A stretch of 63,552 nt of DNA, filler included, from Rhabdomonas costata (Eukaryota), in the NCBI GenBank assembly GCA_019059605.1. It is 26 parts of 26 records of this genome, joined end to end, with 100 filler letters (N's around TTAATTAATTAA, not from the genome) between each part and the next. Parts side by side here need not be neighbours in the genome. Positions count along the whole stretch, not along the records: positions 31,864 to 34,208 come from JAHMHO010003902.1; positions 34,309 to 36,654 come from JAHMHO010003903.1; 24 more parts are not named here. One strand, 5' to 3'. Below the pieces are notes generated by a model, which saw nothing but the letters and a program-made list of their open reading frames with translations, made no database searches and had not been told where the DNA came from. The position numbers were made by a program, and so were the translations under genes. Below, piece by piece: positions 11,495 to 51,328 of the stretch (its first letter is position 1; the number at the start of each line of letters is the position of its first letter).

Positions 11495-12312
11495 GTCCGT
11501 TTCCCTCACTACCTGCCTCTGCCTTGCTCCCCTACAACGCTTGCGCCTGGGACTCGTACACGAGCACCACACACGTCAGCACCATTGGTAGCACACGCGC
11601 CTGGGGTGTCATTGCTTTGCCTTTTTGGAATGTGAGGGTGCCCGTAGAACAGCTCGTATGGTCGCAAGCGGAGAAGCACCTCTCCCATATCCCCCGCGCA
11701 TATATCCGTGGGCACCCGTAATGCCAGAAGTCCTCGGTCCTCTTGGGAGGGTACAAGATGGAGCCTTTGGTGGAGAATCCCATGGAGAACAAGGTGCTGA
11801 CCGGGTACTGGAGTCGCAGTATGTGTCGACAAGCCTGTGATCTGGGGTGTGCTGAACACCAAAGTCATGGTGAAGCAAAGAGCTCAGATGCATCGTTGAC
11901 GTAAGATATATAGGCATACCTTCGGAATCCCGGCCCAAGGTACCACCACAGGAATATTGTCCTTGTGACGCAATACTCCATACTTTTTCAAAAAAAAAAG
12001 CTCTCTGCTTCACCTCGTCAGCACAAAGACTCTCAGATCAAATAAAGAAAACATGGCTAACCAGCACAGAAAAGAAGTCTCCCTGACCCCAGGAAAGTTG
12101 CTGAGCGGAGCCCCCAGACCCCCCCACCNNNNNNNNNNNNNNNNNNNNNNNNNNNNNNNNNNNNNNNNNNNNTTAATTAATTAANNNNNNNNNNNNNNNN
12201 NNNNNNNNNNNNNNNNNNNNNNNNNNNNGTTTGTTATGCACATCTCATTTTTCTTTAGTACGGGCAGTTTTTTCAGATGGATATACGCTTTTAAACTGTC
12301 AGTGCCGAATAA

Positions 12313-12660
12313 TTATGTACATAATTTATCTGTACTATTTGCACTTAAGATGTCTTCAATGTATACTGAGTTTTCCTGAAACTCTTTGAGTACCTTATTT
12401 TTATGCTTACGTTTATAAGCTGCAGCGTTTGCTTTGGTTGCTCTTCCTTGTTTGCGTTTACGGCCCTCTCCACTAATTTTTATCTCACCTGAGACATGAC
12501 CATGTCCGCCGATAGAATCGGCGATTTTGTTAACCATAGCATGTCCTGCATTTCTAACAATTGGGGATGCTATTTTTTGACCTATACCACACAATTTAAG
12601 AAGTACCCGCTTTATTTTGATTCCAGAACCATTAATTAAACGAAAACCTACAACAGTTGT
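12313..12660 (-). pseudogene. Small basic/amphipathic protein downstream of the capsid-like gene (possible virion core/membrane-lytic protein), start damaged
   Basis: INGSGIKIKRVLLKLCGIGQKIASPIVRNAGHAMVNKIADSIGGHG...GEGRKRKQGR. Gly-rich motifs, an amphipathic helix and a basic patch, in intronless AT-rich DNA. Confidence 0.4.
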
Positions 12661-12699
12661 CTTTTTATAAATATATTGAGAAATTTTTTTTAACTTCCA

Positions 12700-13372
12700 A
12701 GTCAAATGACATCTTTAGAGTTTCATCATATGGAGCAACTACTAATAATTGAGATACTTCCGAGGAATAAGAAGTAACCAGATTATTTTGAACTTGTAGT
12801 TTTTTATATGTAGTTGCATCACTATTCACGCGATAACAAAAAATCGGCTCTCTGATGTACTGCTGAATGCTAACATTTTCCGATCTATCGAATTTAGCTA
12901 GTGAATTACCCAAAAAGTCGTCCAAAGTATAATCAACATTGGGGTAATTTTTGTCTACTTACTTTCGTTTCATAATCAGCAGAAGCACCAGTGGCACCAC
13001 CAGAAACACCAATATAACCACTGCTGAAGTCATTTGAAGAGCGAGAAGATGCGTTACATTACACCCACCATTGGGTAGGATGAGCGTAAAGCTCTCATTT
13101 GTATATGTGATTGTGTGGATTTGAGAGAAATATTGTTTTGGTGGAATATTATGTACTATGTTAATAGGTGATGATGTACAGAAATAGCACCAAAGCGTGA
13201 TATCATCGATTCCGATTCCGAATGAGTATGCTACAGTATTAGCACCATTTATGATCGGAACACCACCACCAGAAGGAAATTTCCCAACACATCTTATGAT
13301 CTCATAGATCCAATTTGGATTAACATTAAAATCAATTTCAACCTTACAATGTGGGATCATTGTATCTGATTG
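12700..13372 (-). pseudogene. Decayed major-capsid-like gene of a Polinton-like virus/virophage (C-terminal half, frameshifted)
   Basis: Three consecutive frame pieces: IPHCKVEIDFNVNPNW...IDDITLWCYF...QYFSQIHTI...THLLA; SSNDFSSGYIGVSGG...; KNYPNVDYTL...DRSENVSIQQYIREPIFCYRV...SQLLVVAPYDETLKMSFD. Beta-strand-rich, AT-rich and intronless. The family call is from recalled resemblance only. Confidence 0.55.
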
Positions 13373-15514
13373 AAAAAGAGGGAAAAGAAGAGCCCAACAT
13401 AGCGATTGTTTCCACAAAAAAAGAAAAAAGTAAGCTCGTGATAAAAAGAGATATAGATCGTTTGCGGGTCACAGCTGCGAGGGCTAGCGCACCCCATTTT
13501 CTATTTTCGGTAAGAAACAATGAAACAAAAAACGCAAAGGCAAAGAAACAAGAGAAAAGTCCAGCAAAGCAAAAAGAGTTAGAACTGCGAGAAAAGAATT
13601 GGCTGGGCAGCAAGTAGGGTTTCGGGATGTACAGTAGCGTAATGCCAAATGCTTCACAGAGAAACAAATGTTAAACACCTGATTTGCTCAGCCTTCTTGT
13701 AGTTCACCTTCTTAGCCATGCTGTGCTGATTCCAAATTTCTTCCATATGCCCCTCGAATTTTTCTTTCCTTGGCTGTCATAGCAAACAACAACACTTGGT
13801 ATTTGGTAATCTCGACACAACAGCGTCGAAAGGTGCGCGCAACGGCGTATTCAAAAGATTCAAAAGTCACATCAAATATGATATGGTGTATGACCCACAT
13901 GCGCTGTGAAAGGAAAATCAGAGGGCAATGCCACGGCGGCAAAACAAACCAGCATTTCGCTTCGGTCAGAGAGGAGCCCGACATTCGACCACAGATCATT
14001 TAACATATTACAGGCATGACGTTGACGAAGGAGCATTGAGCACACACAACCTGCGAGGATGAGAACTGAGCGAAATCTGGGTAGCGAGCAGCGTTCAATG
14101 CGTTTTTTGCTTTCGGTGTTTGCAAGGATATTCGGAAGCAGGAGTCCCAACACTGAATCTAAGGTCATGAGGTCATTGAAAAACGGAAACCGTTTGCCGT
14201 AATCTGGATAAAAGAAGGACATTACTTCGGGTGGAACGGGGACCCCACCCGGAAGTAGCCACGCCATCTGTAGTTGTAACTGTGCGCGTCCAATTCCCCG
14301 AACATGAGAAAAGCAAAGCCTCAACTGGCGGTGATGGACGTCCCGCCAACAAGCGGTCGGGGTGCGAGTTGGAAAGCGGCGAAGCCTTCCCAGCGTACAC
14401 CGGGCAACACCAAAAGAAGGATAGAAGCTGAGGTCGGGCAAGTTTACCCCATTTGAGGTATACCAGTACAGTTCCTTCGGCAAGGAATGAGGGAATGTCC
14501 CGAACAAAGGGAACAAAGGTGAAGGGTGGGTGGAGTGGAATGACAGCACAGCCTCACGACTATCCCCACCCACCCNNNNNNNNNNNNNNNNNNNNNNNNN
14601 NNNNNNNNNNNNNNNNNNNTTAATTAATTAANNNNNNNNNNNNNNNNNNNNNNNNNNNNNNNNNNNNNNNNNNNNTTTTTTGTGGATCAACAGTGTGTTG
14701 CAGTGGGCAATACCGGCGATGCTATTGCTGGCGTTTACCCCTGCGCTTACTTCCTTTGGGTCTTTCTGTCTGATACCCTGGTGTGGTTTTTCCTGGGCTT
14801 CTGGAAAGTATGGGAAGGCGCACGAGGCAGTTTTGTATTTTGTCAGAGCTGCTGTCAATTGAGCAATGAGAAATTAGTATTGCATGCTTGGTGTATTGCG
14901 AGTACTGCGGGGTTGGGCGAACTTCGCTTCGAAGTTCGAGCTTCAGTTAATAAACCCCACTCTCACTCTCTCGCACATCTCAGTTTTGCGCCGTCTCGCT
15001 GAATTAGGTGATCCGCTAATAGCAGGTTTACATGATGTGCCGAAGTCGGGGTTTATCAGGCGTGCCGATTCCTTGGGAATCATGCGCGGCAGAGTAGCGA
15101 CGGTGATCTCGGCACTTGGTGACTTGGTAAGGTGTGGTGCAGTGTATGGGATCCAGGGTTGGACTTAATTCAGTCTTGAAATTTCTGGACGGTAGTTTGC
15201 GCGGTGCGATCAGAACACCTTTTCACCCCAACATTACGTAAGCAATTTTTAGGCTGCGTCCGTTAGGGTTCCCAGGAGTCCTGGGCATTGGGCCTCGCAA
15301 GGCAGAATGCGCGACTACCAGAATGGATTAGATGGATCTCTCACTGGTTACTGCCCGACTCCCTTTCTCTTTTTCTCTTGCTCACTTGCCGTCACTTACG
15401 TGCTGTAAACAGGGACCCAGGAATCCCTGCCATACGGCGTGCCGGTTGGCGTGTGGGGGGTGGGGCAATGCAACCGGTGTCTTGATGTCTTCTTTTTCTT
15501 CTTCTTGGCAGGGC

Positions 15515-31863: not shown

Positions 31864-32524
31864 TGTTGGTTGTTAACAGTTCAATCTCAATGCACCGAGG
31901 ATTAATTCGTTTGTGTATTACTTCTGCCGAATGCATGTAAGTAACCGCACTTACAAGTTGATATATTAGTGACATAGTATGAACATCGGAAAATTGAATA
32001 GAACCGCTATTAAAAATAGAATCCAGAGATAAACTCAGATGTTCAGTCACATTAATAAATATTATATTTGACTTGTTTAGTAAACTATATGTATGCAAAA
32101 AGAGATCAACATTTTGGAAATGTTTCCTTAGCTCAAGCAGACGTAATATTTCTTTTGCTTTTTCTATATCTGAAAATATATCCTTTGTGTATTGAATCGC
32201 AGTAATCCTGTAGTTTTGTTGTTGGTCATTATCTGTATAAAATCCATAATACACATGGGATAACATATTAGTTTGTGTCGGTTGTAGATGGTGTATGCTC
32301 ATCTCATTTTCTAAAAATAAAGCTTCTATTTGTTCAATAGTCCACCAATCATCATGAAATTTTGGAGTACCTAAATCGCTCATTGGAGACTCCAATGATG
32401 GGTATGATTCTCCAGCAGGAACGGTAACTGTCAACTTCGTAGCATGTCCTTCAGTTCCTCGTTTTTGTTTACTTGCTTGTAAATACTTATATTTATATTT
32501 AAGGTACTTCCGTTTATAATCCAT
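31864..32524 (-). CDS. MAPK-like pseudokinase with N-terminal KYLKYK motif (viral), 3'-truncated
   Basis: MDYKRKYLKYKYKYL leader. ITAIQYTKDIFSDIEKAKEILRLLELRKHF, VTEHLSLSLDSIF and LIYQLVSAVTYMHSAEVIHKRINP parallel MAPK subdomains II-VIb. Confidence 0.8.
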
Positions 32525-32730
32525 ATACTTATACTCCACATTTTTATATTTTTTTAATTATTTATTTCTTTTTCTCATTACATATATCTTAATAAAAGTT
32601 ATAGTATCTGTAATTATCTTTTTTATAATTATACAAAAAATATGTTTTCATTTATTGTATCTTGTATAACTGAAATAAAAATCATTAAATCCACAGCCCA
32701 AAATAAACTTATAATCAAATAAGTTCATTA

Positions 32731-33132
32731 TTAAATGTAATTTTCTTTGATCTTTTGGAAAGCATCATTTATTTGATTTATTTTATCATTTAGAATGTCA
32801 TAATCTTGTATTTCAGTTAAATATTTTTTAATGTCGTCACATAGTTTTACTATCTTTTTTTCATATTTATCAGGTAATCCACAATATTTTTCGTAACATG
32901 TTGGATGCCAATATTCATCAGATGTACAATATGCTAATCCATTATCGGCTATTACAAGATCATCATAGTAATGACAATATTGACACATTTTTGTTTTTTT
33001 ATAAATATCTTTACATTCTTCACTGCAAAAATATCGAATGTAACTTTTATTACGATAATATGACGTCGTATGTAAAAAATATTCTGTATTTGAATCTTTT
33101 TCACAATCTATTAATCCACACTTATTGTTCAT
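32731..33132 (-). CDS. Viral Cys-rich zinc-finger protein (FCS/TRASH-like) with C-terminal coiled coil
   Basis: Complete 133-aa ORF with CGLIDC...YFCSEEC and CQYC...YC...C. Confidence 0.7.
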   Translation of the reverse strand: MNNKCGLIDCEKDSNTEYFLHTTSYYRNKSYIRYFCSEECKDIYKKTKMCQYCHYYDDLVIADNGLAYCTSDEYWHPTCYEKYCGLPDKYEKKIVKLCDDIKKYLTEIQDYDILNDKINQINDAFQKIKENYI

Positions 33133-33171
33133 GTAAATGACTATAAAATATATATCTTTATATAATACGAA

Positions 33172-33179
33172 AAAATTGA
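33172..33179 (+). promoter_or_regulatory. Mimivirus-type early promoter AAAATTGA
   Basis: Exact octamer 50 nt upstream of the ATG at 33222, in a divergent intergenic region. Confidence 0.8.
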
Positions 33180-33221
33180 ATTTTTTATTCTGTGTATATA
33201 CACAGATTTAAAAAACTATAA

Positions 33222-33700
33222 ATGAAAATAGTCGGAATAAATTGTCGTGAATATGATAATAAATATTTGTATTTATTGTCAAAGAAAAAAGAAAAATTAA
33301 TTAAAATGAAAAATTACTCAATTTCAATCTGTAATTATATGAATTGTTCATCAGAAAATTTAAAACAAAACCTATTTTAGAATCAGTTATTATCTATTAC
33401 AGTAATAAAAGTAAATATTTTATAAATTTATATGATATCATGTCATTTATTTATACCGTACATTACAATAAACGTAAATTAAATACAAAATACAATAAAT
33501 TAAGATCATTATTTAATATGCCGTGTAATATAAAATGTTCATTTTGTGAATGTAAAATTACTACATTATTAGAACTTTATAAACATTTTATACATGTATT
33601 TAAAAATTTCTCCAAAAGTATTTTAGATTTACAAAAAATAATTAAAATGAATCTTTGTGATTTTTATGATGATAAAACATGTAAGTGTAATTATGTTTAA
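33222..33700 (+). pseudogene. Viral ORF with C-terminal C2H2-like finger, split by a single frameshift near 33340
   Basis: The frame starting MKIVGINCREY... at 33222 stops at ~33380. An overlapping frame LFIRKFKTK...CSFCECKITTLLELYKHFIHV continues to 33700. Confidence 0.6.
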
Positions 33701-33763
33701 AAAATAATAAATTATTTTTATAAAAATAATAAATTATTTTTATTATAAAAATAATAAATTATT
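33700..33763. terminator. Array of AT-only hairpins between convergent viral genes (Mimivirus-type polyadenylation hairpins)
   Basis: AAAAATAAT-AA-ATTATTTTT at 33700-33719 and 33722-33741, plus a partial third copy at 33747-33763. Confidence 0.72.
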
Positions 33764-33977
33764 CAAGATGATATTCATTTTTATGTTTATTATTGTAGTA
33801 TTTCGAACATTCCGATGATTGTTGTCCACCTAATAAAACTAAACCACATTGTACTGGACATTGATTCTTTTTTGTACATTCATTGTATATTGGCATACAA
33901 TTAGTTCTAATACATGATTTAACACCATTACATGATTGTTTACATATAAGTAATGTTTGTGAACAGTTATCACACAT
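33759..33977 (-). CDS. Small Cys-rich viral protein (72 aa)
   Basis: Complete ORF with 10 Cys, an LLGG motif and a Lys/Tyr/Asn-rich tail. Confidence 0.65.
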   Translation of the reverse strand: MCDNCSQTLLICKQSCNGVKSCIRTNCMPIYNECTKKNQCPVQCGLVLLGGQQSSECSKYYNNKHKNEYHLE

Positions 33978-34029
33978 TATTATATATTAATGTATTATTT
34001 TTCATTACGAGTGAATTTATATTTAATTA

Positions 34030-34037
34030 AAAATTGA
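34030..34037 (+). promoter_or_regulatory. Mimivirus-type early promoter AAAATTGA
   Basis: Exact octamer 62 nt upstream of the ATG at 34092. Confidence 0.8.
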
Positions 34038-34091
34038 AAATAAAACATATTAAGTGTAGTAAATAAGTAATATTATTCATTATAAATAAAA

Positions 34092-34199
34092 ATGACGTTT
34101 ACGAATCTGAATCTTGATGTTATCGATATGATAAGTTTGTATTTGTCAACAACTGAAATATTACAATGTCAATGTGTATGTACATATTTCAGTTGTTGA
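34092..34199 (+). CDS. F-box protein N-terminus (viral), truncated at contig end
   Basis: MTFTNLNLDVIDMISLYLSTTEILQCQCVCTYF fits the F-box pattern. It is below the ORF-track length cut-off and was translated by hand. Confidence 0.65.
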   Translation: MTFTNLNLDVIDMISLYLSTTEILQCQCVCTYFSC

Positions 34200-34845
34200 C
34201 AACACAAANNNNNNNNNNNNNNNNNNNNNNNNNNNNNNNNNNNNNNNNNNNNTTAATTAATTAANNNNNNNNNNNNNNNNNNNNNNNNNNNNNNNNNNNN
34301 NNNNNNNNGTTTTGGTGGGAGCCTTTTCCTGGAAGCCTAGCCCCGAGCCACTTCTTTCGAGCAGAGGTAGCTCGGGGCTAGGCTTCCAGGAAAAGGCTCC
34401 CAGCAAAATTTGAATATATAGTGGTGAAAAATTTTAAAGAAAGCGCGAAAATAAGGTCAGGATTCATTATTTTCTTAATTTCTCTTTGTGATTTGTGATT
34501 TTGAGGTGTTTCTCGTACACCATTCTGACATTTTCTGCATTTTGCTGTATTTGAGCTAATTTGTCTTCTTTGAATCGTCACATAGGGTAGGATTCTCGGG
34601 TTAGCATTTCTTGTCTTTTCTTCAACGGTCTCGCACCGTTGAAATAACCCACACCTCACCCTATTGCCCTATTACAATGGCAACACCCGCTTTCTTTCAA
34701 AAAAATTTTATTCAAAAAGAACATCAACCAATTTTTTATGGGACTCTAACTTTTTACTTTGGGCTGGGGGAAGGGGCAGGGCTCAACCTTGCTGATTGGG
34801 CTAGTCTCGCTTGTCCACGCACTTTGCTGCACACGTTTAGAAAAG

Positions 34846-48983: not shown

Positions 48984-51328
48984 GTCGCAACATGGGCAGC
49001 CGTCGCAGCTACCTCCATGCCCAGCTCGATACCCACCATCCGGAAGGTGGCCCGAGACTCAAGGTCCAAGGGCCCCGAGTCCAAAGTCAAGGTAATCTTC
49101 TGACCCCCGGCAACTCCGAGCACCAAAGTTCAGTTTTGCCCAGGTGAAGCTGTACACGAAGGAGCTGAAACCAAGCCTGGTACGCGCCCACCAGGAATCC
49201 ACTTCTCGGAGAGAGGCAGCAAGCAGACACACGTCATCCGCGTAGCTGGTTGATGCAAGATATGAGTCATCCAACTTCACCCCAACCTGCTGAGCTCCAG
49301 CCCAGCGGTGAAACGGCTCAAAGAGGATATTCAGGAGGTCGGGACTGGCAGGACACCCCTGGGCAAGCCCATTGGCCATAGTCCATTCCGACCCATCAAC
49401 TTGGCCGTAGCGGAAACGGTGCCGGAGGTGGGCATAGAAGTGCTTGAAGCACCGGATAACCTCCGAAGAGATGCCCGTCTCCTCCATAACGCCAAAGAAT
49501 GCCCACCAAGAAAGGGAGGGAAAACATTTCGCCACGTCAAACTTGACGAGCCATAGAGGTTCTCCGCGCCGCCGCTGGAGCTCAATAACGTCGGTCAGCA
49601 GCTGGGCCAGGTGCAGCGTGCTAGACTGTGCCCGAAATCCCATAATTGAGGGGCCCAAATAGGAGCCCTGGAGTATCGGAGCCCAGCATAGGATAATGCC
49701 CTTGGCCCACAAGCGGTACAGCACATCCAGGACGGTAATAGGTCGTTGGTCCTGGGGCCGAGTCCCGCCCGAGGCCTTGGGAATCATGGCGACGTAGGCA
49801 CGCAGCATTTCCTCCGGCCAGAGACCCTCCTTTTCCACTAGGTTGAGCAGGTCCGCGACGTGGGAAAGAAAGTTCTCCGGGAGAGACTTCCAAATCCCCA
49901 GAGGGATGCCTCGGGAGCCAGGAGAGGAACGCTCCCGCATGCCACCTAAAACAGCTTGGACCCTGGCCAGGGTCCAGCTCTCATGCGGCCACGTACACCG
50001 AGGAAGGTGGCCAAAGAAACGGGAAGTTCGAAAGGCAGCCCAACTGGAGGCGGAGTCCACCGCCTCGTGCATCCTCCAAACTCCTTGGACCCAATACGAA
50101 CGTACCGCCGCGTCTACGGCCTCGAGAGAGCAGCACTGCTGGCCTTTCTCGTCCAAAATGGGCGAAGTACCCCAGGAGGAAGACTCACCTCCCAGCCACC
50201 GGTAAACCAGACCAGGGCGGGTCTTCCACAAATGCGGGAGGTGATCTTGCCAGCGCCGGCGTCGCTCCGCCCGCATCTCCTGCACAGAAGTCGTCAGGTC
50301 CTGGCGCACCGCGATGATGCTGGCCTCAAACCAGTCTTGAAGAGCAACCCGCGAGGAAATAGGGGGGCGAAAGCCACGGTGGCGCAACTGAGCCAGCAAC
50401 TTCAGCAGGGGGGTAGAAAAGCAACCCAGAGCGAAGGGCGTAGCCCGGAGTTCACGTCGGAGAAGAGCGAGACATTGGCCCAAGAGATCGAGGGAGACCC
50501 GCAACCGCCGAACATCCTGTGACTCGTAGGCGAGACGGCGAACAGGGGGGCGAGCAGTCCAGCCTCCAGCGAGGTCCACCAAAGCGTCCAGCGCCGCCTG
50601 TATCCGGCCAGAGACGCACTGAGCGGTCAACCCGCCGCCAGAAGACAGAGAGGAGAGGGCGCGGAACGCAGTAGACCGTTCCCACCTCAGAAGTAACTCC
50701 TGCCAGTCCTCAGAAGCCCGGAGCTCCACCCCCCGTTGAGTAAGAGAAGGTGGCAGAAGGGGACGAGGAGCGTGCCAGGACATAGCCCACCTAGAACAAG
50801 GCTGTAAATCCACCACAACGGGGGAATGCCCCCCATCCATGACTCCGGAGGCAAAGCAAACGGCGTGAACCAGCGCGAGAGCGGAACCGTTTCCAAGGGC
50901 GAGATCACACCGGGAGTGCATGACCGTGGATTGGTTGGGCATGGCGAAGGTGTAAGCCCAGTCTGCCGGAGACACCGCAAGCTGCAGATCAATGAGGGAA
51001 CCCCCAGGGCCAAGCAGGCGACTGAGCAAAGGGCAGAGAGGCCCAGTTCCCGAGCTGTAATCTCGGTCCGGCGCCACCGTGCCATTGAAATCGCCAAGGA
51101 GAAGCGTAGGTATCTGCATGTCCAGCGAGGAAACGAATTCCAAGAAGGTGGACGTGAAGACCTCGCGACCCGGATCCCGAGGAAAAGGGGCATATACGGT
51201 GAACACCCGTAGGCCCAGAGGAAGTGCGGGTCGGCGAGGCACCAGTACACCATGGAGGCGAGCCATTGCATGAAGCCGGCGCCAAGCTGAACCTTGGGGA
51301 GGCAAAGGAGACACGGCCACCCCACCAC
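48984..51328 (-). mobile_element. Non-LTR retrotransposon ORF2 (APE endonuclease + reverse transcriptase), truncated by contig ends
   Basis: 753-aa ORF with VYAP, LLLGDFN, SRCDL and GHSPV (APE), and IPKA...QRPITVL, KFDVAKCF, GLAQGCPASP and YADD (RT). One frameshift near 49195. Confidence 0.95.

Follow-up and report, generated by a model that had tools for sequence, protein, structure and literature searches.

An AT-rich contig in the Rhabdomonas costata assembly is probably a genome fragment of an undescribed mimivirus-like giant virus

The genome assembly of the flagellate Rhabdomonas costata (GCA_019059605.1) contains a contig whose base composition raises the question of the organism it comes from. 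The window, i.e. the whole stretch of DNA analyzed here (63,552 nucleotides, filler included), consists of 26 separate contigs of 2342-2407 bp each, which are joined by N...TTAATTAATTAA...N spacers. One of them, an independent contig of the assembly located at 31864..34208 (2345 bp), has a GC content of 23.6%, compared to 41.7-60.4% in the other 25 contigs. Among ten long ORFs taken from these other contigs the sole Pfam match was a reverse transcriptase, and scans of the window for Rfam families and tRNAs found nothing; no feature of the window indicates the euglenozoan-like host that the first-pass annotation had proposed. The first-pass annotation had described the contig as very AT-rich with five compact, intronless genes, and both the composition and the ORFs were confirmed.

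Six ORFs are packed into these 2.3 kb. They are compact, intronless and arranged on alternating strands, with a coding fraction of 0.77 (0.70 without the 52-aa ORF) and an intergenic GC content of 0-17%. A Shine-Dalgarno sequence is absent upstream of five of the six ATGs. The first ORF (31864..32524, minus strand) is cut by the 5' edge of the contig, which leaves 220 aa from the N-terminus of a MAPK-like protein kinase homologue. It is followed by a Cys-rich ORF of 133 aa (32731..33132, minus strand) with an FCSEEC zinc-finger motif of the MYM/FCS-like type. Relatives of this ORF and of its family profile were found in one small metagenome family (cluster) only, and no relative of the profile turned up in the genomes of 185,579 prokaryote species. 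Its AlphaFold model is poor (mean pLDDT 45.7). The next ORF (52 aa, 33222..33380, plus strand) is of doubtful reality, with flat GC1/2/3 values and no match. An ORF of 86 aa (33440..33700, plus strand) shows a C-x2-C...H-x3-H spacing when read by eye, and the one of 72 aa (33759..33977, minus strand) is again Cys-rich; no homologue was found for either, and Protein Atlas searches returned no usable match for the ORFs of 133 aa and 72 aa. GC1 exceeds GC3 in the kinase, 133-aa and 72-aa ORFs.

The last ORF (34092..34199, plus strand) is the start of an F-box protein gene, 35 aa long and truncated by the contig end. Its match to PF00646 (E 1.8e-4) scores 21.8 bits against a Pfam gathering score of 20.5, as the first reading of this gene had proposed. 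The alignment runs from residue 3 to residue 33 and covers positions 1-31 of the 43 in the profile, and the last codons lie within a fold-back. This perfect 19-nt inverted repeat at 34143..34202 (arms 34143-34161 and 34184-34202; z -5.0, reached by 0 of 200 shuffles) takes up the final 60 nt of the sequence and is probably an assembly artefact, which created the stop of the F-box ORF.

NCLDV (nucleocytoplasmic large DNA virus) hallmark genes, among them the major capsid protein, PolB, the A32 ATPase and VLTF3, were not found by Pfam on the 2345 bp. A fragment of this length would rarely hold one. The gene bodies of the contig have no relatives in IMG/VR according to protein scans. On the origin of the contig, the N-terminus of the kinase homologue gave the deciding result.

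Mimiviruses, CroV and Bodo saltans virus use the octamer AAAATTGA or the nonamer AAAAATTGA as their early promoter, and hairpins follow their ORFs, as described in the corresponding publications (PMC5294985, PMC3542560, PMC5871332). Three copies of AAAATTGA are present on the contig, all of them on the plus strand. The copy at 31990 lies antisense within the kinase ORF. The other two, at 33172 and 34030, are located 50 nt before the ATG at 33222 and 62 nt before the ATG at 34092, which agrees with the exact motif that had been noted 50-62 nt before two ATGs. Both are extended to the nonamer AAAAATTGA, which starts 51 and 63 nt before these ATGs. The second nonamer (34029..34037, plus strand) precedes the F-box ORF. 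The first is part of the quasi-palindrome AAAAAATTGAATTTTTT (33170..33186) in a divergent spacer, which also presents AAAATTCA 52 nt before the ATG at 33132 on the minus strand. Exact AAAAATTGA is thus found in two of the six upstream regions read in gene orientation, and a third carries AAAATTCA.

The number of AAAATTGA copies on the whole contig is not significant (shuffle mean 0.95, P(>=3) = 0.074). When the count is restricted to the regions upstream of the six ORFs, read in gene orientation, the presence of the 8-mer in at least two has a P of 0.005 and that of the 9-mer AAAAATTGA a P of 0.0006. In giant-virus loci fetched from IMG/VR, the upstream regions of 262 unique ORFs contain 45 occurrences of AAAATTGA, compared to 2-8 for eight composition-matched octamers, and 26 of these 45 occurrences are located 40-59 nt before the ATG. 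Judged by their placement in the sequence, the motif positions of the contig (50-62 nt) match those in the IMG/VR loci. One of the two promoter-placed copies of AAAAATTGA precedes the 52-aa ORF, which shows no coding signal. The late motif of the Megamimivirinae was also considered. A single match with one mismatch abuts the kinase ATG and none is exact; this match was left out of the evidence.

Of the four 3' ends visible on the contig, three have a hairpin after the stop codon. An AT-only hairpin at 33703..33763 (arms 33703-33732 and 33734-33763, 30 nt each, 87% complementary) is common to both 3' ends of the convergent ORFs of 86 aa and 72 aa and takes up the gap between their stops, as had been claimed for this intergenic region. 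Its fold z is -3.2 on the minus strand and -1.4 on the plus strand. A second hairpin with an 11-bp stem (32702..32729, minus strand) directly follows the stop of the 133-aa ORF in a 206-nt spacer with 17% GC. The 146-nt fold that contains it has a z of -2.6, and 3 of 200 shuffles were as stable. No hairpin was found after the doubtful 52-aa ORF (fold z +0.5). The hairpins carry modest weight, since AT-rich DNA folds easily.

The kinase homologue was recognized by PDB and remote matches; its Pfam kinase matches fall under the cut-offs. The best 60 of its 126 PDB matches are all MAP kinases (CMGC group; best E 2.2e-7), with an alignment that spans subdomains II-VIb at about 30% identity. An exhaustive search revealed 81 remote matches (best E 2.8e-8, none below 1e-10), and neither this search nor a word-indexed search among longer proteins found a close relative. 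Unlike the MAP kinases, the homologue has TAIQ in place of VAIK and HKRINPRC in place of HRDLKPxN, which align with VAMK and HRDITPAN of chain 4qny_A. HRD[LI]KP is present in 55 of 90 compared proteins, 83 of which are kinase hits or their cluster members. The VAIK lysine, the HRD aspartate and the catalytic-loop Lys/Asn of an active MAP kinase are all replaced, and the 220-aa protein is probably a pseudokinase, as far as these residues indicate. Its activation loop lies beyond the contig edge.

Sources were looked up for 20 of the 81 remote matches, and the named ones are transcriptomes of dinoflagellates, foraminiferans, radiolarians and euglenids. Two matches come from a euglenid transcriptome, and a loop of the HRDITPAN type is found in the best PDB match as well as in some database matches. 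A capture of the kinase gene from a euglenozoan host was considered and dropped, because a quick tree separates the homologue from the euglenid pseudokinases: it is placed on a very long branch (3.95) inside a set of 11 rows (SH-aLRT 97) that contains no euglenid rows.

The pseudokinase opens with the leader MDYKRKYLKYKYKY, which the first-pass annotation had already pointed out. From the first Met after an in-frame stop, the Lys/Tyr-rich N-terminal tag reads MDYKRKYLKYKYKYLQ (32477..32524, minus strand). It carries the marker M-x-Y-x-x-KYLKYKxKY[LIF], an empirical one that was defined in the present analysis and does not represent an established criterion. A DNA pattern for KY[L/F]KYKYK was run on IMG/VR and on prokaryote genomes, and a match was counted as terminal if it lies <=30 aa from the first Met (ORFs of at least 100 aa) or <=30 aa from the stop (ORFs of at least 300 aa). 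IMG/VR gave 38 matches in 36 loci, mostly on contigs named as giant-virus MAGs ("GVMAG" in the naming of IMG/VR); 18 are N-terminal, 8 C-terminal and 12 located elsewhere, i.e. 26 of 38 are terminal. Among the 122 matches in 120 loci of the prokaryote genomes, 5 are N-terminal, none is C-terminal and 117 are located elsewhere (Fisher's test, odds ratio 50.7, p = 5e-16). The one true look-alike among the prokaryotes lies on a 6.9-kb MAG contig of 22% GC, which is probably viral itself. The earlier statement that KYLKYK-type motifs are common in klosneuvirus/tupanvirus-like proteins was right in substance: a terminal tag recurs on giant-virus MAG contigs and is nearly absent from terminal positions in prokaryotes.

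The pattern was derived from the kinase homologue's own sequence, with the prokaryote genomes as the control, and it favours AT-rich DNA because the codons for K and Y are AT-rich. This bias is answered only in part by the control and by the agreement in position and flanks. At positions free of the pattern, the giant-virus tags agree with the kinase tag in M at -5 (11/20), D at -4 (6/20), Y at -3 (17/20), K at -2 (8/20) and L at +9 (11/20). After position +10 the kinase tag diverges, and it lacks the GG that follows 19 of the 20 N-terminal tags of giant viruses. A published description of the terminal tag was not found in the literature, and the tag itself may be undescribed.

The records behind 3 of the 36 loci, namely two bins (955 kb and 1.46 Mb) and one contig of 68 kb, were searched for capsid genes, and Capsid_NCLDV was above the cut-off in all three. 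They contain 25, 37 and 4 tag patterns, respectively, compared to 0 in the reversed control, and AAAAATTGA occurs 252, 328 and 25 times, compared to 77, 119 and 4 in the reversed control. Genes for a class I aminoacyl-tRNA synthetase and for protein kinases are present in both bins, and two MutS genes in one of them. The uncultivated tag-bearing MAGs of IMG/VR, such as the bins to which loci L010 and L015 belong, with the tags MDYKKKYLKYKYKYI... and MLYKKKYLKYKYKYLQ..., resemble the contig in a GC content of 15-33%, in AAAATTGA 40-59 nt before ATGs and in the presence of protein kinases. They differ in that the tag alone is held in common with the contig, and in the GG mentioned above. The kinase homologue matches the three records through residues 1 to 24-42 only, at seven ORF starts, which shows that the tag is modular. 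The 133-aa ORF and the kinase domain have no match in these records. F-box genes are scarce there, with one marginal match in the three records, and were rejected as a common trait. An early motif is absent from all 29 tagged genes examined, and likewise from the tagged pseudokinase.

A described virus with a similar combination of signals is Bodo saltans virus, a member of the Mimiviridae and so far the sole giant virus isolated from a euglenozoan. According to its published description (PMC5871332), the genome has a GC content of 25.3% in a host of about 50% GC, the early promoter is AAAAATTGA, palindromic hairpins follow the ORFs, and many ORFans and host-interaction gene families are present. 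By this description, the contig is like Bodo saltans virus in the low GC content, in AAAAATTGA and in the hairpins. A difference is that its gene bodies have no detectable viral relatives in the collections searched.

Taken together, the contig very likely represents a genome fragment of an undescribed mimivirus-like giant virus (order Imitervirales, Mimiviridae in the broad sense), which was sequenced alongside a eukaryote of about 50% GC. The Mimiviridae-like origin that had been proposed at first is well supported because of the distribution of the terminal tag, the capsid genes and the enrichment of AAAAATTGA in the tag-bearing records, and the peak of AAAATTGA 40-59 nt before ATGs, with the promoter octamer of the contig placed as in giant-virus contigs. 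The Klosneuvirinae-type assignment that had been suggested as probable would need a phylogeny of core genes and an expanded translation gene set, and the contig has neither a core gene nor a translation gene. The virus may infect this organism, be integrated in its genome or stem from a different cell of the sample. As a sub-case of this explanation, the fragment might be integrated in the host chromosomes as a giant endogenous viral element, with no active virus. We regard this as less likely than not. Endogenous giant-virus elements are widespread, and eight are reported from Euglena gracilis (PMC12455990), which shows that giant-virus DNA can be part of a euglenozoan flagellate assembly. 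As described there, the Euglena elements are eroded, integrated and belong to the Asfuvirales, whereas the contig has mimivirus-type signals and intact ORFs. The loss of catalytic residues from the kinase homologue fits an integrated copy. The length of the contig is about that of its neighbours in the window; this similarity is uninformative on coverage, since all contigs of the window are nearly equal in length. Against integration, no host-like flank or junction is present on the contig, which is AT-rich throughout, with ORFs, promoter motifs and hairpins intact.

Two further origins would place the contig outside the genome of a giant virus, and we consider both very improbable. The contig could be a small mobile element (transpoviron, virophage or polinton-like virus) carried by a mimivirus-like virus whose promoters it has in common; the small zinc-finger-like ORFs would fit the gene content of transpovirons. 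Such elements and their giant virus have regulatory motifs in common; for a transpoviron gene of Megavirus vitis, the source gives an early motif 54 nt before the start codon (PMC11464507). However, Pfam revealed no helicase, virophage capsid or packaging ATPase on this short fragment and a repeat search no terminal inverted repeats, and kinase and F-box genes together with the terminal tag are found on giant-virus bins of about 1-1.5 Mb. The remaining possibility, to which we attach equally little probability, is an AT-rich cellular genome in the sample, belonging to another protist, to a nucleomorph or to an intracellular bacterium whose genes are eukaryote-like. Many protists have MAPK-like pseudokinases, the F-box and kinase domains are of cellular origin, and the contig has no viral hallmark gene. 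On the other hand, six intronless ORFs on alternating strands in 2.3 kb are denser than the genes of free-living eukaryotes, and the lack of Shine-Dalgarno sequences at five of six ATGs together with a eukaryotic MAPK-type kinase argues against a bacterium. The 133-aa family profile has no relatives in the prokaryote genomes searched, and terminal tags are rare among the prokaryote matches (5 of 122). The placement of the AAAAATTGA nonamer would be unexpected in cells.

For a mimivirus-like giant virus, early transcription by the viral polymerase inside a cytoplasmic factory would be expected of the genes behind AAAAATTGA, namely the F-box gene and, via AAAATTCA, possibly also the zinc-finger gene of 133 aa. 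Their mRNAs would terminate at the hairpins, as has been described for Mimivirus and for Bodo saltans virus. The pseudokinase would be a non-early, probably late, product, since the early motif is missing from it as from each of the 29 tagged genes examined, and its tag may route it, like other tagged proteins, to packaging, processing or the like. Host-mimicking accessory genes of this kind, for an F-box protein and for a MAPK look-alike that is catalytically dead, would be expected to interfere with host ubiquitination and signalling.

Gly-Gly is a cut site of proteases of the adenovirus, ASFV and poxvirus type. A more far-reaching reading, which we consider rather unlikely, is that the tag (M-x-Y-x-x-KYLKYKxKYL-x-LK...GG) would be an undescribed portable sorting and processing signal of a large mimivirus-like clade. 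It would be attached to either end of unrelated proteins, set off by a cleavable Gly-Gly and confined to non-early genes, and it would route its cargo, in the present case a MAPK decoy without catalytic activity, to the virion or the factory. The fragment would then stem from a mimivirus-like virus with the flagellate as its true host.

According to published accounts (PMC12455990, PMC8061765), no giant virus other than Bodo saltans virus is known to have a host within the Discoba. If other low-GC contigs of the assembly belong together with the one analyzed here, they could provide a second virus of the mimivirus-like type that is associated with such a flagellate, or reveal a recent integration. 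If the far-reaching reading is true and the host proves to be euglenozoan, the virus would be new to a host group of which only one virus has been isolated to date. In the megabase-sized viral bins, dozens of proteins per genome carry the terminal tag. As a flag for giant-virus fragments without hallmark genes the tag is cheap and needs no alignment, and it is a testable candidate for a protein-sorting signal.

The 63.5-kb window consists of 26 contigs of 2342-2407 bp with N...TTAATTAATTAA...N spacers between them and is not a single locus. Because separate contigs were joined, adjoining window sequence is uninformative on linkage. Positions 31864-34208 are exactly one contig of 2345 bp with a GC content of 23.6%, while the remaining 25 contigs range from 41.7 to 60.4%. 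Its coding density is 0.77 (0.70 without a 52-aa ORF) and the GC content of its spacers is 0-17%. The features listed for it in the first-pass annotation (ORFs, AAAATTGA sites, hairpin, leader and F-box start) were all confirmed on recheck. The contig with the second-lowest GC content (12229-14575; 41.7%, with stretches of 27-35%) showed no sign of a relation to the AT-rich contig, and its 233-aa open frame gave no Pfam match. On another contig, a 755-aa open frame (49062-51326, minus strand) covers almost the entire sequence. It contains an RVT_1 reverse-transcriptase domain (E 5.8e-15) and is a retroelement of the host-type sequence with about 60% GC.

Six ORFs were identified on the AT-rich contig. 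A 220-aa ORF (31864-32524, minus strand) is open at the contig edge and starts, at the first Met downstream of an in-frame stop, with the Lys/Tyr-rich tag MDYKRKYLKYKYKYLQ. It is followed by a Cys-rich 133-aa ORF (32731-33132, minus strand) with an FCSEEC zinc-finger-like motif, whose sole relatives form one cluster of five metagenome proteins with 40-43% identity. The codon-position GC gradient is missing in the 52-aa ORF (33222-33380, plus strand) alone. For the 86-aa ORF (33440-33700, plus strand) and the Cys-rich 72-aa ORF (33759-33977, minus strand), no relatives were detected in Pfam, IMG/VR and further protein searches. At 34092-34199 (plus strand) an F-box protein begins, matching PF00646 with 21.8 bits (cut-off 20.5). 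Within this ORF, the terminal 60 nt of the contig (34143-34202) form a perfect inverted repeat of 19 nt around a 22-nt loop (fold z -5.0), which is probably an assembly artefact. Because of this fold-back the stop of the F-box ORF is suspect; it is probably artefactual too, the gene being merely cut off by the contig end.

Pfam kinase matches of the 220-aa ORF score under the cut-offs. The best 60 of 126 PDB matches are all MAP kinases with about 30% identity over subdomains II-VIb. TAIQ stands in place of VAIK, which carries the invariant lysine, and the catalytic loop reads HKRINPRC in place of HRDLKPxN. Judged by these residues, the product is best regarded as a MAPK-like pseudokinase. Exhaustive searching of 1.84 billion representatives returned 81 remote matches, none of them below 1e-10, and a quick tree placed the ORF on a branch of length 3.95, apart from the euglenid pseudokinases among the matches. 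Degenerate catalytic loops (HGN, HKR, HLN, HHH, HNN) are recurrent in MAPK-like proteins from euglenid, dinoflagellate and foraminifera transcriptomes (proteins P0007, P0016, P0089, P0067, P0013, P0028 and P0031). The HKR variant is common to P0067 and the kinase homologue of the contig; the two are not close in the tree.

The early promoter octamer AAAATTGA occurs three times on the contig, always on the plus strand. This whole-contig count is unremarkable (shuffle mean 0.95, P(>=3) = 0.074). Two copies are located in spacers in the orientation of the genes; they precede ATGs by 50 and 62 nt and are each part of the 9-mer AAAAATTGA. By spacer shuffling, presence of the motif in two or more of the six upstream regions has P = 0.005 (8-mer) and P = 0.0006 (9-mer). 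A quasi-palindrome including the first copy places AAAATTCA on the opposite strand, 52 nt before the 133-aa ORF. The 86-aa and 72-aa ORFs are convergent, and the 58-nt gap of 0% GC that separates them is occupied by a hairpin whose 30-nt arms are 87% complementary (fold z -3.2 on the minus and -1.4 on the plus strand), and an 11-bp stem lies directly 3' of the 133-aa ORF stop. According to reports including PMC5294985, PMC3542560 and PMC5871332, AAAATTGA serves as early promoter in mimiviruses, megaviruses, moumouvirus, tupanviruses, CroV and Bodo saltans virus. Hairpins occur 3' of ORFs in these viruses, as the same reports state.

The first-pass annotation described KYLKYK-type motifs as common in proteins of some giant viruses, which was in substance borne out by a pattern search of IMG/VR with a prokaryote control. 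A degenerate DNA pattern for KY[L/F]KYKYK gave 38 matches in 36 IMG/VR loci with 15-40% GC, about half of which bear giant-virus MAG names. Matches were counted as N-terminal up to 30 residues from the first Met (ORF >=100 aa) and as C-terminal up to 30 residues from the stop (ORF >=300 aa); 18 were N-terminal, 8 C-terminal and 12 elsewhere. The same pattern had at least 122 matches in at least 120 loci of the prokaryote collection, and among the 122 listed, 5 were N-terminal, none C-terminal and 117 elsewhere. Terminal placement thus differs between IMG/VR and the prokaryote matches listed (Fisher odds ratio 50.7, p = 5e-16). Just one of the five N-terminal prokaryote matches listed, locus L094, resembles the viral tag. 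Its 684-aa ORF opens with MEQKYLKYKYKYLSLKKGGG on a 6.9-kb contig of 22% GC filed as a bacterial MAG (genome_contigs), which looks like a misbinned giant-virus contig.

Residues left free by the pattern also match the window, as seen in MDYKKKYLKYKYKYI (L010), MDYKTKYLKYKYKYIQ (L034) and MLYKKKYLKYKYKYLQ (L015) compared with MDYKRKYLKYKYKYLQ. Among 20 unique N-tagged ORFs, 17 have Y at -3 and 11 have M at -5. Of the 20 N-terminal tags, 19 have GG within the next 25 residues, and by eye GG precedes 3 of the 8 C-terminal tags; the tag of the contig itself has no GG. The consensus in giant-virus MAG proteins reads M-x-Y-x-x-KYLKYKxKY[LIF]-x-L-K...GG at the N-terminus, or mirrored near the C-terminus. 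Tag-bearing IMG/VR loci are L001-L036 and L045-L048 (e.g., L010:3272-4582:-, L015:3585-4997:+ and L033:11359-12750:+). The carriers are mutually unrelated, mostly ORFan proteins; a domain scan of 20 found one WW, one NUDIX, one histidine phosphatase and one TPR (below cut-off) domain, and none in 16. No description of the tag was found in full-text literature searches.

Three tag-bearing records, two bins of 955 kb and 1.46 Mb and one 68-kb contig, were searched further. All contain NCLDV major capsid proteins above cut-off (9, 7 and one matches, respectively). In the same order, tag patterns number 25, 37 and 4 (reversed control 0), AAAAATTGA 252, 328 and 25 (reversed control 77, 119 and 4) and AAAAATTCA 117, 210 and 6. 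Both bins encode a class I aminoacyl-tRNA synthetase and several protein kinases, and one has two MutS genes. Across L001-L036, the 150-nt upstream regions of 262 unique ORFs contain 45 copies of AAAATTGA (42 genes), compared with 2-8 occurrences for each of eight composition-matched octamers. For 26 of these copies the distance to the ATG is 40-59 nt, and the copies of the AT-rich contig are likewise placed. In the viral loci, the early motif precedes none of 29 tagged genes with a full upstream region versus 43 of 248 untagged genes (p = 0.012). Tagged genes have abundant TATATA-type runs in the proximal part of their upstream regions.

The viral polymerase would transcribe the F-box gene, and perhaps that of the 133-aa ORF, early from AAAAATTGA, and the 3' ends of their mRNAs would be formed at hairpins. 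The early motif is absent upstream of the tagged pseudokinase gene. Occurrence of the tag on unrelated proteins, mostly with GG nearby at the N-terminus, suggests a portable signal for a common fate, e.g., packaging or proteolytic maturation at Gly-Gly. Cleavage at Gly-Gly is known for adenovirus, ASFV and poxvirus proteases.

A viral origin of the AT-rich contig is considered likely. Because promoter placement and terminal tag both match giant-virus records, the contig appears to have two independent lineage-restricted signatures in common with mimivirus-like viruses, prokaryote genomes being the control for the tag. Composition and gene packing are also as in these viruses. The 2345-bp fragment carries no NCLDV hallmark gene, and viral homologues of its gene bodies were not found in IMG/VR protein scans and the three giant-virus records. 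Such a viral fragment may stem from an infection, an integration or a satellite element, or from a virus that belongs to another cell in the sample. Among described systems, Bodo saltans virus comes closest, with 25.3% GC compared with about 50% in its host, the identical nonamer and hairpins (PMC5871332). In contrast, the endogenous elements of Euglena gracilis are Asfuvirales (PMC12455990) and of a different kind. The terminal tag may represent an undescribed signal and offers a practical marker for giant-virus fragments that are free of hallmark genes.
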